A stretch of 64,000 nt of DNA, from assembly GCA_963772655.1 (NCBI GenBank), contig CAVYYE010000003.1, positions 2,545,341 to 2,609,340 of the forward strand. Reading direction: 5' to 3'. Made by a program: the position numbers and the translations under genes. The first letter of the stretch is position 1, and every line of letters begins with the position of its first letter. The notes under the pieces are model-generated. The model was not told the origin of the DNA, did not search any database, and saw only the letters and a list, made by a program, of their open reading frames with translations. The DNA is from an uncultured delta proteobacterium. Its GTDB lineage: Bacteria > Myxococcota_A > Polyangia > Haliangiales > Haliangiaceae. Below, piece by piece: positions 15,218 through 18,173 of this stretch.

Positions 15218-15233
15218 GAGTCGTCGAGTCGTG
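15218..15233. promoter_or_regulatory. Tandem direct repeat GAGTCGTC GAGTCGTG about 40 bp upstream of the CpxP-like gene. Candidate OmpR-family regulator binding site.
   Basis: ttcacgttGAGTCGTCGAGTCGTGaaac. The flanking TCACG...CGTGA arms are also inverted. Confidence 0.3.
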
Positions 15234-15274
15234 AAACAGGGGGACCACAGGCTGGTGAGTGAAAGGAAACCACC

Positions 15275-15787
15275 ATGATCTGTCTCGCCATCGGTCTCGG
15301 AGTTCTCGGTGCGATCGCATTTCGCCGTGCGCGTCGTTGCCATCACCACGGATGCGGCTACGGATGCGGCTACGGCTGGCACGGTCCGTGGGACGGCCCC
15401 GGCTATCCCCGGCACCATCACCGCCACCGGCGGGGCCGTTGGATGATGCACGCGGCGCTCGCGCGAATCGATGCGACGCCGGCGCAGGAGCGGTTCATCG
15501 TCACCGAGATCGACAAGCTACGCGATCGCATGGGGAACGCGCGCGAGGGTCTATTCGACGTCCGCGGAGACCTCGCGGCCGCACTGCGCGGACCTCAGCT
15601 CGACGACGCGGCGCTCGGTGCGGTGCTCGGTCGGGTCGACGCCACGACCGCGGAGACCCGCGCCGCGGCACTCGATGCGTTGCGCGCGATCCACGGCGTG
15701 CTCGACGACAGGCAGCGTGCGCAGGTCGCCGACATGCTGGATCGCAGCGGCGGCGCTGGTTGGTGGCGCCACGGTCCCTACCGCTGA
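15275..15787 (+). CDS. CpxP/Spy/ZraP-family periplasmic protein with a His-rich N-terminus
   Basis: RBS GGAAA upstream and a signal-like N-terminus. The histidine-rich stretch reads HHHGCGYGCGYGWHGPWDGPGYPRHHHRHRRGRWMMH. The LTxxQ-like ATPAQERFI and a helical body follow. It sits directly upstream of the OmpR-type regulator and kinase pair. Confidence 0.7.
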   Translation: MICLAIGLGVLGAIAFRRARRCHHHGCGYGCGYGWHGPWDGPGYPRHHHRHRRGRWMMHAALARIDATPAQERFIVTEIDKLRDRMGNAREGLFDVRGDLAAALRGPQLDDAALGAVLGRVDATTAETRAAALDALRAIHGVLDDRQRAQVADMLDRSGGAGWWRHGPYR

Positions 15788-15805
15788 GACAATCGGTCGT
15801 CCGCC

Positions 15806-16492
15806 ATGCGAGTGCTCCTGATCGACGACGACGCCCGGCTCGCCGAGCTGCTCGAGGGTTACCTCACGCCGCAAGGCGTGTCGCTCGCGCACGCCGGTGG
15901 CGGTCAGGCCGGTCTCGCCGCACTCGCGACCGGCGGCTTCGATGCGGTGCTACTCGACGTGATGATGCCGGGCATGGACGGCCTCACCGTGCTGCGCACC
16001 CTACGCGACGCCGGTCACCGGATCCCGGTGCTGATGCTGACCGCGCGCGGCGACGAAGCGGATCGCGTGGTCGGACTCGAGCTCGGTGCCGACGACTATG
16101 TCGCCAAGCCGTTCTCGCCACGCGAGCTGCTGGCGCGCCTGCGCGCGGTGATGCGTCGGGCACAGCCCGATGCAGTTGCCGAGCGCCTGACGTCGGCAGG
16201 GATCGCGGTGGATACCGGTTCGCGCGAGTGCTGGGTCGACGGCAAGCCGGTGGAGCTGACGGGCCTCGAGATCGATCTGTTGACCGCGCTGTTGCGCCGC
16301 GCCGGCCGGGTGGTGCCGCGCGCGACGCTGCTCGAGCTCGCGGGTCGCGGCGACGTCACGGTCAACGAGCGCGCTGTCGACGTTCACATCTCGCGGCTGC
16401 GCAAGAAGCTCGGCGACGATCCGCCGACGCGGATCCGCACGGTGCGCGGCGTCGGCTACGTGCTCGCGCGCTCGGCGACGGAGGACGCGTGA
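15806..16492 (+). CDS. OmpR/PhoB (CpxR-like) family response regulator
   Basis: Receiver domain MRVLLIDDD...DVMMPGMDG with a winged-helix C-terminus, VHISRLRKKLGDD..IRTVRGVGYVL. Confidence 0.9.
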   Translation: MRVLLIDDDARLAELLEGYLTPQGVSLAHAGGGQAGLAALATGGFDAVLLDVMMPGMDGLTVLRTLRDAGHRIPVLMLTARGDEADRVVGLELGADDYVAKPFSPRELLARLRAVMRRAQPDAVAERLTSAGIAVDTGSRECWVDGKPVELTGLEIDLLTALLRRAGRVVPRATLLELAGRGDVTVNERAVDVHISRLRKKLGDDPPTRIRTVRGVGYVLARSATEDA

Positions 16493-16577
16493 GGCAGGCG
16501 CGCGTGGCGATAGTCGCGCTGGCCGCGTACGTCGCGATCGCGGTGTCGGCGGCGGTCGGCCTCGCGGAGCTCTCGAC

Positions 16578-18173
16578 ATGAGCGAATTGCCGTTCCGGCT
16601 GGCCGCGCGGATGAGCTCGGTCGAGCGCGCCGGCCCGTGGCAGGTTCCGCCCGAGGTCGAGCTCCGCACGTGGTGGGGCAACGTCGAGCTCGATCTCCGA
16701 GAGGCGACGTTCTCTCCCGGCACGACGACGTTCGACGTCCTGGTGACGATGGGCCACGTCGAGCTGATCGTGCCGCCACACGTCGAGGTGCGGATCGAGG
16801 TCGAGTCGTTCGCCGCGAGCATCGAGCAGCAGGGCGCGCCGGCGACGGCGTCGGCCGAGTCGGAGGGACAAGCTCCGGGCGAGACCACCGTCGTGTTGCG
16901 GCTGGTCGGCAGCGTGCGGTTCGGAAACCTCGAGGTGATCCGGTTGTGGCCGGGCGAGACCCGCCGCGATGCCTCGCGCCGGCGTCGCATGGAGCGCAAG
17001 CTCCGCCACGGCCACTTCGTCGCCGACCACTTTCACGATCACGGTCCGCATCACGACGACGTCGACGACGAGTCGTGCAGCAATCGCACCCGACGACGTC
17101 GACGACACGCAGCGCGTCGTCGGCAGCGCTGGCGCGAGCTCCACGCCGAACGCGAGCTGTGGCGGCGCACCCGCGATCGCGGCGAGCCGTGGCGACCGTG
17201 GTGGGTGATGGCACGCATGCGCCGGAAGATCTTCTTCTGGCTGGCGATCGCGCTCGGTGGCGGCATCGCGATCGGATTGCGGCTCGATGGAGCGCCGCGA
17301 TGGTGGTGGATCGTGATCGGACTGGTCGTGTTATCGATCATGTCGGGTGCGATCGCGTTCCGGCTGACCCGCCCGCTGATCCTCGCGATCAAGGCGGCGC
17401 GCGACATCGGCGACGGCAAGCTCGACACGCGGATCGACGTCGACAGCCACGGCGGCGAGACCCGCGTACTCGCGACCGCGATCAACGATATGGCCGAGAA
17501 GATCGAGCAACAGATCGCCGATCAGCGCCAGCTGCTCGCGGCGGTGTCGCACGAGCTGCGTACTCCACTCGGCCACATGCGCGTGCTGGTCGAGACCGCG
17601 CGCGGTTCGCCGTCGGGCGGGGAGCCGGTCGCCGGGGCGGGCGTGCAAACCAAGGCGCTCGACGAGATCGAGCGCGAGATCCTGGTGCTCGACGATCTGG
17701 TCGGCAAGCTCCTGGCGTCGTCGCGGCTCGAGTTCGGCAACCTCGAGCGACGGCCGATCGATCTCGGCGAGCTCGTCACCGATGCTGCGACCGCGGCAGA
17801 TGTCGATCCGGATGCGATCGAGGCGATCGGCGACGTGCGCGCCGCCGTCGATCCGACGCTGCTCCGGCGCGCGGTCGCGAACCTGCTCGACAACGCGCGG
17901 GTCCACGGCAAGGGCGTGGTGGCGGTGCGGATCGAGCGGCGCGCCGGTCAGGTCGCGATCGAGGTCGACGACGCCGGTCCGGGAGTCTCGGCCGAGCGGC
18001 GCGCCGATGCGTTTCGCGCGTTCGGGCCGTCGTCGGGAACGTCGGGAGGAGGATCGGGGCTCGGGCTCGGACTCGCGCTGGTGTCGCGGATCGCGGTGGC
18101 CCACGGCGGTGGCGCGTGGATCTCGGAGCGCCCCGGCGGTGGGGCACGGGTCGGATTCGCCGTCCAGGCGTGA
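16578..18173 (+). CDS. Sensor histidine kinase with a cytoplasmic N-terminal domain of about 200 aa and a His-rich linker, in place of a periplasmic sensor
   Basis: RBS GGAG. The N-terminus is not hydrophobic. After a beta-rich domain and a His-rich linker come two transmembrane helices separated by a tiny loop, IFFWLAIALGGGIAIGLRL and WWWIVIGLVVLSIM. The H-box is [11 protein letters not shown] and the HATPase domain carries DDAGPGV and GGSGLGLGLA. Confidence 0.85.
   Translation: MSELPFRLAARMSSVERAGPWQVPPEVELRTWWGNVELDLREATFSPGTTTFDVLVTMGHVELIVPPHVEVRIEVESFAASIEQQGAPATASAESEGQAPGETTVVLRLVGSVRFGNLEVIRLWPGETRRDASRRRRMERKLRHGHFVADHFHDHGPHHDDVDDESCSNRTRRRRRHAARRRQRWRELHAERELWRRTRDRGEPWRPWWVMARMRRKIFFWLAIALGGGIAIGLRLDGAPRWWWIVIGLVVLSIMSGAIAFRLTRPLILAIKAARDIGDGKLDTRIDVDSHGGETRVLATAINDMAEKIEQQIADQRQLLAAVSHELRTPLGHMRVLVETARGSPSGGEPVAGAGVQTKALDEIEREILVLDDLVGKLLASSRLEFGNLERRPIDLGELVTDAATAADVDPDAIEAIGDVRAAVDPTLLRRAVANLLDNARVHGKGVVAVRIERRAGQVAIEVDDAGPGVSAERRADAFRAFGPSSGTSGGGSGLGLGLALVSRIAVAHGGGAWISERPGGGARVGFAVQA

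Follow-up and report, generated by a model that had tools for sequence, protein, structure and literature searches.

CpxP, Spy, ZraP and CnrX are textbook periplasmic proteins, and annotation pipelines take their fold to indicate a function in the envelope or periplasm. In the CpxP-CpxA-CpxR system of Escherichia coli, a protein of the Spy/CpxP fold is encoded beside an OmpR-family regulator and a HAMP-HisKA kinase, and the accessory gene lies behind the operator of the system itself, which makes feedback likely. In the Zn-responsive envelope system ZraP-ZraS-ZraR, the CpxP-family protein has a low-complexity segment rich in Gly, His and Cys, and the suspected signal is a metal. A locus sharing these features lies in a stretch of 64,000 nucleotides of an uncultured delta proteobacterium (contig CAVYYE010000003.1), hereafter the window; the interval analysed, 15218-18173, holds three genes on the plus strand, coding for a protein of the same fold (P1), an OmpR-type response regulator and a histidine kinase, at the coordinates given by the initial annotation. 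The analysis suggests that they constitute an autoregulated three-component system acting on the cytoplasmic side of the inner membrane, with metal as the most likely signal; the probability of this reading is put at about one half. The logic of the system appears analogous to that of CpxP-CpxAR and ZraP-ZraSR, in which an accessory protein of the same fold is encoded with, and controlled by, its two-component system. The locus nevertheless cannot be counted among the Cpx, Zra or Lia systems, as defining features of these were looked for and are missing. The three genes are as follows.

15275-15787, plus strand: P1, a putatively membrane-anchored protein of the Spy/CpxP/CnrX fold, 170 amino acids (open reading frame, Pfam, alignment, AlphaFold2 model, profile)
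15806-16492, plus strand: OmpR/PhoB-family response regulator, 228 amino acids (Pfam)
16578-18173, plus strand: histidine kinase with Toastrack domain, His/Arg linker, transmembrane hairpin, HAMP, HisKA and HATPase domains, 531 amino acids

A genome scan revealed relatives of P1 in 80 species-level genomes, nearly all of them Kofleriaceae or Haliangiales (Myxococcota), and the order P1, regulator, kinase is kept in essentially all of these. Identities to the window across this clade are 75-90% for the regulator and 54-75% for the kinase. For the wider P1 family, an exhaustive profile search gave 1,183 clusters at 50% identity with E≤1e-3, 626 of them with E≤1e-10. Here the regulator lies within 600 nt after P1 in 43 of the 52 metagenome loci with enough downstream sequence, and in this metagenome sample the kinase then follows wherever the contig reaches far enough; identities to the window are 62-71% for the regulator, 38-49% for the kinase and about 30% for P1. 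The order of the three genes on one strand, as described in the initial annotation, is hence confirmed in the clade and in the wider family alike, and P1, regulator and kinase form one conserved co-directional module that is old and tightly kept. The corresponding Cpx genes, in contrast, are divergent. In most of the related loci the regulator and kinase genes overlap or are separated by less than 10 nt, unlike the window, where an 85-nt gap (16493-16577) extends from the regulator stop to the first possible kinase start. A kinase start at the internal ATG 17208 was considered and rejected: the 531-residue product is on record in public annotation, the shorter one is not, and the Toastrack region upstream of this ATG is in frame and conserved.

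P1 can be divided into four parts.

15278-15322, plus strand: residues 2-16, ICLAIGLGVLGAIAF, putative N-terminal hydrophobic anchor, nearly invariant; helix 3-23 in the AlphaFold2 model
15323-15442, plus strand: residues 17-56, RRARRC followed by a disordered His/Gly/aromatic/Arg-rich linker; predicted local distance difference test score (pLDDT) <50
15443-15748, plus strand: residues 57-158, predicted helical hooked-hairpin domain with two LTXXQ-like motifs and the invariant His140 (pLDDT 80-89; Foldseek; profile)
15749-15784, plus strand: C-terminal tail ending in the invariant GGWWRxGPYR (alignment)

A match to LTXXQ or CpxP had been named beforehand in the initial annotation as the test of its CpxP/Spy-like assignment. 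The P1 of the window scores just under the Pfam cut-offs (28.9 vs 29.2 for Metal_resist, PF13801; 20.4 vs 24.3 for LTXXQ, PF07813), its homologues pass PF13801 and the Pfam cut-offs (e.g. 42.7 bits), and the profile of the wider family matches E. coli Spy over the whole domain with both LTXXQ motifs aligned (E=2.9e-5), which is the best sequence-profile match of the P1 family. The AlphaFold2 model displays helices at residues 50-64, 69-105, 111-142 and 145-158 with pLDDT of 80-89. Its best matches in the PDB by Foldseek are exclusively Spy, CnrX, NccX, CpxP and ZraP (3LAY), with a probability of ~1 and target TM-scores (template-modelling scores) of 0.55-0.71, CnrX and NccX having the best TM-scores (0.63-0.68). 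A search of the PDB with the single P1 sequence gave nothing significant, only a weak match of the linker composition to prion octarepeats. Since the homologues pass Pfam, the family profile matches Spy and the model matches Spy, CnrX, NccX, CpxP and ZraP, P1 is by homology and predicted fold a true member of the Spy/CpxP/CnrX/ZraP superfamily, and the initial assignment is upheld. Spy itself differs from P1 in being soluble and exported; it lacks an anchor and a His-rich linker, and its gene has no two-component system next to it.

The two LTXXQ motifs of P1, DATPAQ (residues 66-71) and LDDRQ (residues 143-147), are degenerate and invariant in the family, and align to LNLTDAQ and LTPEQ of Spy; the invariant His140 stands before the second motif. 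The sequence reads ...RRCHHHGCGYGCGYGWHGPWDGPGYPRHHHRHRRGRW...IDATPAQER..., so that the His/Cys/Gly-rich insert and the LTxxQ-like ATPAQ are present just as they had been quoted. The His/Gly/Cys/aromatic-rich segment is conserved in character across the family. Among 120 homologues the linker contains on average 20.5% His, 26% Gly, 23% Arg/Lys and 1.6% Asp/Glu, and its length varies between 23 and 62 residues. In the window it carries a perfect 12-bp tandem duplication (15348-15375, ACGGATGCGGCT x2.3, detected by Tandem Repeats Finder) that encodes GCGY-GCGY. The duplication, together with the variation in length, makes it seem that the linker evolves by replication slippage. The terminal GGWWRxGPYR does not vary within the clade. 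Its GPYR part is also found throughout the wider family, where some distant members have C-terminal Cys/His clusters instead (HHCYRCAHC, GHSHGCGC).

The composition of the other two proteins is that of an OmpR/PhoB-family two-component system, viz. a receiver with winged-helix Trans_reg_C in the regulator (Response_reg 100 bits, Trans_reg_C 83 bits) and HAMP, HisKA and HATPase_c in the kinase, all above the Pfam cut-offs. Pfam showed no AAA+/sigma-54 interaction domain in the regulator. ZraR is a sigma-54 activator of the NtrC type, unlike the OmpR-type regulator found here, so the ZraP-like template of the initial annotation does not extend to the regulator. The Cpx-like identity proposed there is also not borne out. 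The regulator, which lies below every NCBIfam equivalog cut-off, reaches 166.9 bits against the CpxR model NF008199 (cut-off 341), and the kinase 99.2 bits against the CpxA model NF007007 (cut-off 486); both Cpx models are outscored by others (PhoB, OmpR and MtrA for the regulator; PhoB, OmpR and RstB over the Cpx models generally), yet PhoB, OmpR and RstB too remain below their own cut-offs.

The kinase is further distinguished from CpxA, which has a periplasmic sensor domain, by its N-terminal half and its membrane segment.

16593-16943, plus strand: residues 6-122, cytoplasmic Toastrack (LiaF_C) beta-helix domain
16953-17198, plus strand: residues 126-207, His/Arg-rich linker and the conserved motif RWxELHAEREMW...WxPWWLMARMRRRIF that precedes the first transmembrane helix, TM1 (alignment A3)
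17199-17363, plus strand: residues 208-262, transmembrane hairpin with an outer loop of ~7 residues, 236-242 (AlphaFold2 model, alignment)
17352-18158, plus strand: HAMP (259-311), HisKA (316-385) and HATPase_c (425-527)

The LiaF_C/Toastrack domain, absent from the initial annotation, is recognised by PF09922 at residues 20-120 with 34 bits (cut-off 29), and residues 6-122 are modelled as all-beta with pLDDT of 95-98. The 75 residues before TM1 contain 10% His and 26% Arg/Lys, as compared to 2.2% His in the C-terminal remainder of the kinase, and the model is disordered at residues 147-167. In 82 homologues, TM1, the loop and the second transmembrane helix (TM2) together take up 43-47 residues. 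With an outer loop of only ~7 residues, the kinase has no periplasmic domain. Two transmembrane helices, a linker below ~25 residues and the lack of an extracytoplasmic domain place it among the intramembrane-sensing kinases, although the classic type lacks the HAMP domain and the cytoplasmic N-terminal extension, here of ~200 residues. In the wider family the kinases are conventional, with TM1, a loop of ~92-104 residues without Pfam match, TM2 and no Toastrack; as the clade kinases have ~7 residues in place of this loop, the Kofleriaceae lineage appears to have lost the outer loop of the kinase and built up its cytoplasmic side.

A full-length search called the Toastrack-kinase fusion in 118 of the 120 closest homologue clusters, and clade kinases without Toastrack still keep the His-rich N-terminal tail before TM1. 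A search with the N-terminal 215 residues of the kinase returned only five stand-alone DUF1707+LiaF_C proteins and no information on the fusion. The domain has been argued to be an intracellular, sub-membrane assembly domain (PMC11237479). In the LiaFSR and VraTSR systems of Firmicutes, as in the window, a cytoplasmic Toastrack works with a kinase whose membrane part is a hairpin only, and the operon is autoregulated, as is probable for the locus. The locus differs from LiaFSR in several respects: the LiaF_C domain is fused here to the N-terminus of the kinase and belongs there to a separate LiaF with four transmembrane helices; HisKA and an OmpR-type regulator stand here in place of HisKA_3 and a NarL-type regulator; LiaI and LiaH/PspA genes are missing from the locus, which has an additional CpxP-fold protein.

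The side of the membrane on which P1 resides has been deduced from its N-terminus, MICLAIGLGVLGAIAF-RRARRC, which is almost invariant (MICLAIGLGVLGxxAxRRARRC in the clade). The hydrophobic stretch is followed by four or five basic residues and preceded by none. Of 129 family representatives with a hydrophobic segment at the N-terminus, 122 show no Lys/Arg in front of it and 3-7 behind it; the seven exceptions are mostly over-extended start calls, and the start codon of P1 is fixed by the conserved Shine-Dalgarno sequence. The flanks of the kinase hairpin, whose cytoplasmic location follows from that of HAMP and the catalytic core, served as an internal control: they contain 4.6 and 3.7 Lys+Arg per 15 residues, and the C-terminal flank of the P1 segment 4.0. 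The orientation of membrane proteins follows the positive-inside rule, and the lack of charge before the anchor together with RRARR and the basic linker after it makes it likely that P1 is anchored with its N-terminus outside and its C-terminus inside (N-out/C-in), the CpxP-like domain facing the cytoplasm.

Homologues of P1 are annotated in the source databases as 'periplasmic heavy metal sensor' and 'Spy/CpxP family protein refolding chaperone', and an exported, periplasmic P1, acting like CpxP or ZraP as a metal-binding inhibitor or chaperone of an envelope-stress kinase, would agree with these annotations, with the fold and homology to CpxP, Spy, ZraP and CnrX, with the resemblance of the short hydrophobic stretch to the core of a signal peptide, and with the periplasmic loop of ~95 residues in the wider-family kinases. 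The charge pattern of the N-terminus, however, is that of neither a signal peptide nor the N-in anchor of CnrX, in which basic residues precede the anchor and the domain is periplasmic. Clusters of Arg/Lys directly after a hydrophobic stretch, such as the 3-7 seen family-wide in P1, block Sec export. A cleaved signal peptide is also unlikely in the lack of a conserved AxA site and in view of the poly-Arg 'mature' N-terminus that cleavage would leave. The twin Arg stands after the hydrophobic core and not before it, as a signal of the twin-arginine translocation (Tat) pathway would require, and Cys3 is too near the N-terminus for a lipobox. The kinase of the window, moreover, offers P1 only ~7 residues to bind in the periplasm, and regulator and kinase fall below the Cpx equivalog cut-offs. 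A periplasmic P1 is accordingly judged very unlikely. P1 thereby departs from CpxP in its predicted uncleaved anchor, reversed charge bias and cytoplasmic location, and from ZraP, a soluble periplasmic oligomer, in being anchored and predicted to face the cytoplasm. The envelope-facing mechanism of the initial annotation finds no support in a kinase with such a loop and an accessory protein with such a charge pattern; a cytoplasmic location of the protein had been named there as an outcome contradicting it, and this is the location predicted from the charge pattern of P1.

Some points nevertheless speak for caution about the orientation of P1. The positive-inside rule is the single basis of the predicted topology, and the main reason for caution is that the hydrophobic stretch comprises only 15-16 residues, a length that recalls the core of a signal peptide more than a typical transmembrane helix. 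All superfamily members characterised so far (CpxP, Spy, ZraP, CnrX) are, to our knowledge, periplasmic. A periplasmic partner would make sense for the kinases of the wider family, which carry the periplasmic loop.

The region upstream of P1 contains a conserved arrangement of boxes, as evident from a gapless alignment of 70 upstream regions; the spacings of the motifs were taken from 56 motif-matched loci.

15199-15214, plus strand: box 1 of the putative operator, TGCAATGTTTCTTCAC, with half-sites TGCAA (15199-15203) and TTCAC (15210-15214), 11 bp apart
15218-15233, plus strand: tandem octamers GAGTCGTC GAGTCGTG, 41 nt before the ATG, in the variable N13 spacer, the last bases overlapping box 2
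15228-15239, plus strand: box 2 of the putative operator, GTCGTGAAACAG (clade consensus GgTcgcGaAACAc), about where a -35 element would be
15248-15253, plus strand: -10-like element CAGGCT (clade consensus CATCCT, wider family cAgatT; A2 and T6 conserved)
15262-15267, plus strand: Shine-Dalgarno sequence AAAGGA, 7 nt before the ATG

The layout in the clade is CTGCAAgGTTTCTTCAc, N13, GgTcgcGaAACAc, N7, cCATcCTG, N4-6, gtgAAAGGa, N6-9, ATG. The spacing between box 1 and box 2 is fixed at 13 nt in 55 of the 56 loci, the information content of box 2 reaches 2.4 bits, and the Shine-Dalgarno sequence GTGAAAGGA precedes the ATG by 6-9 nt (by 8 nt in 41 of 56). Information content is highest at box 1 and drops to about zero immediately upstream of it, which indicates that the signal does not merely reflect the relatedness of the loci. 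In the wider family the layout is TTcACnCTTCTTcAC, containing two TTCAC half-sites 10 bp apart (TTcAC-N5-TTcAC), N17, CTTcACA, N9, cAnnnT; this homologous layout is present in 56 of 58 non-redundant regions, and the third box lies 16-17 nt after box 1 in 51 of the 56. Box 2 occupies the position of the wider-family CTTcACA, and the -10-like element follows it at a fixed distance in both clades.

Half-sites in the same orientation with a period of 10-11 bp are what dimers of the OmpR/PhoB family bind, so that the boxes are good candidates for binding sites of the regulator encoded by the module. Promoters that depend on an activator classically show a third site at about -35 beside a weak -10 element, and the promoter is placed here by this pattern; no consensus sigma-70 promoter was found in 15050-15320, as expected for such a promoter. 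The operator of CpxR, in comparison, is GTAAA-N5-GTAAA, as against the TTCAC type seen here. The motif of box 1 has a single match in the window, and in related loci it stands only before P1 or its tandem paralogues. Together with the conserved gene order, these features make autoregulation of the three-gene module highly probable.

Other readings of the upstream region were discarded. Judged by eye, extracytoplasmic function (ECF)-type and sigma-54-type readings of the boxes do not fit the spacing, and no GG/GC or AAC-N16-CGT pattern is conserved. An inverted-repeat operator, TGTTTCnnnAC-N13-GTnnnGAAACA, was dropped as the primary reading because the wider family displays same-orientation TTCAC half-sites at the equivalent positions. 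In Kofleriaceae the third box is changed from CTTCACA to CGAAACA, which creates an apparent inverted repeat with box 1 (window 15203-15238) as a peculiarity of the clade. A search of Rfam gave nothing at E≤1 in 14900-18400, and a TTCACG/CGTGAA pairing in the leader is not kept in homologues.

The initial annotation had placed an autoregulatory site in this stretch and identified it with the octamer repeat. A conserved operator of regulator type does lie where indicated (15199-15253), and it flanks the repeat; the repeat itself occurs at chance frequency in a spacer that is not conserved. Tandem 8-mers with ≤1 mismatch number 68 in the window as compared to 70.7 expected from a first-order Markov simulation, the Tandem Repeats Finder score of 31 is like that of many background repeats, and the columns of the repeat have low information content in the 70-region alignment.

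P1 is tandemly duplicated in some genomes, e.g. in L021 (1398-1994, 2249-2755) and L024 (4302-4799, 4939-5442), where each copy has its own operator box and the upstream copy is without the C-terminal GPYR tail.

As the first gene behind the only conserved operator, P1 might be a mere regulated output, i.e., a membrane-tethered cytoplasmic metal sponge or chaperone with no role in signalling. The extra tandem copies with their own boxes suggest that dosage matters, the His/Cys/Gly-rich linkers resemble metallothionein in many family members, and Spy and ZraP are chiefly effectors of their regulons. Strict co-inheritance with kinase and regulator over a very wide range is, however, more typical of an accessory signalling protein, and the membrane anchor and the invariant C-terminal GPYR tail suggest a specific partner. 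A role as output only is considered unlikely; it is compatible with the proposed three-component system and does not exclude it.

On the basis of the above, the following working model of the three-component system is suggested. The first ~16 residues of P1 would anchor it in the membrane in N-out/C-in orientation, with the basic His/Gly/aromatic-rich linker and the helical domain of the Spy/CpxP/CnrX type just beneath the membrane. The kinase would have only its hairpin in the membrane, and its Toastrack domain and His/Arg-rich linker would lie on the same cytoplasmic side, so that the kinase, with or without Toastrack, and the tethered P1 could meet under the membrane. The signal would most likely be an excess of transition metal on the His(/Cys)-rich segments, or alternatively a perturbation of the inner leaflet; it would be sensed by the kinase together with P1 and would change the output of the kinase. 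The phosphorylated regulator would then bind the TTCAC-type half-sites (TGCAA-N6-TTCAC at about -60, GAAACA at about -35) and activate the operon from the weak CAnnnT promoter. The resulting rise in P1 could buffer the ligand and/or feed back on the kinase, as CpxP and ZraP do, from the opposite side of the membrane.

Metal as the signal is proposed only tentatively. Metal binding in a reducing compartment would fit the Cys/His-rich linkers and tails of distant members (HHCYRCAHC, GHSHGCGC), the invariant His before the second LTXXQ motif and an architecture resembling that of CnrX and NccX. In CnrX/NccX, of the CnrYXH Ni/Co sensor of Cupriavidus, the combination of an N-terminal anchor with a four-helix hooked-hairpin metal-sensor domain (Metal_resist) comes closest to P1, albeit with the opposite charge bias; CnrX, whose ligand set is His/Glu/Met, acts on an ECF sigma factor by way of an anti-sigma factor, without a two-component system.

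Several observations detract from the proposed metal-sensing system. The His-rich linker is of low complexity and very variable in length and sequence, and could serve only as a spacer or as a tether that binds lipid. About one third of the clade kinases have no Toastrack, which is hence not essential to the module. Within ±6 kb no second copy of the operator was found in related loci, and in the neighbourhoods of these loci no metal transporter, resistance or homeostasis gene is conserved near the module.

The last observation, along with the intramembrane-sensing layout of the kinase and the extremely basic linkers, would also suit a signal other than metal, namely the state of the inner leaflet or the cytoplasmic pH, sensed by a membrane-stress system resembling Lia or Psp. 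The basic His-rich segments would then bind anionic lipids or titrate with pH, and Toastrack would scaffold the complex. Toastrack/LiaF_C is a hallmark of LiaFSR/VraTSR and has been proposed to assemble sub-membrane stress-sensing complexes (PMC11237479). P1 and its His-rich segments persist, however, in the clade kinases' loci without Toastrack and in the whole wider family, which lacks the domain; the Cys/His-rich linkers and tails of distant members look like metal ligands; and no PspA, LiaI or LiaH-type gene was found in the conserved neighbourhood. A membrane-stress or pH signal is a serious alternative to metal, although rather improbable on this evidence.

No characterised member of this branch of the superfamily was found in the literature. 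The new element would be an inward-facing CpxP-fold family, predicted from charge and motif patterns that hold family-wide. It is suggested, with some reserve, that a superfamily branch of ~1,200 clusters (50% identity), automatically annotated as 'periplasmic', acts at the cytoplasmic face of the membrane as an 'inside-out CpxP', a partner rich in His/Cys that binds the ligand for a dedicated two-component system, and that the kinase of Kofleriaceae dispensed with its periplasmic loop and shifted all sensing to this face through a His-rich tail and a fused Toastrack. If so, hundreds of 'periplasmic heavy metal sensor' and 'Spy/CpxP refolding chaperone' entries would be mislocalised, and the fold could assist a kinase or sense a ligand from either side of the membrane. 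From the natural series of kinases (with loop; with hairpin and His-tail; with hairpin and Toastrack) it could then be seen how the input of a kinase is relocated. The fusion of Toastrack to the kinase offers a simple one-polypeptide model for communication between a LiaF-type domain and a kinase, and the conserved, well-defined operator makes the binding and the regulon of the regulator directly testable.

The conserved neighbours of the module (ComM/YifB, a secreted protein, pseudouridine-5'-phosphate glycosidase and a zinc-ribbon protein) represent plain synteny and give no functional hint. A pair of an ECF sigma factor and a putative anti-sigma factor occurs near the module in ~10 of the 80 genomes, ~2-3 kb upstream of P1 in L001, L002 and L005 and in about seven other loci too; its position varies and it is not conserved with the module.

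The stop codon of the kinase (18171-18173) abuts that of a convergent gene, with zero intergenic bases and no terminator-like structure between them.

18174-18803, minus strand: DUF924 gene, convergent to the kinase (PF06041, 198 bits)

Upstream of P1, a divergent gene on the minus strand (13131-15128) codes for a multi-pass membrane protein of ~660-730 amino acids without Pfam match. The long Pro/Ala-rich N-terminal region of its product corresponds to ten copies of a 24-bp repeat ('PSGAVPAA'; repeats at 14578-14810). In five other genomes a homologue of this gene lies downstream of the kinase and convergent to it, its position relative to the module being variable.

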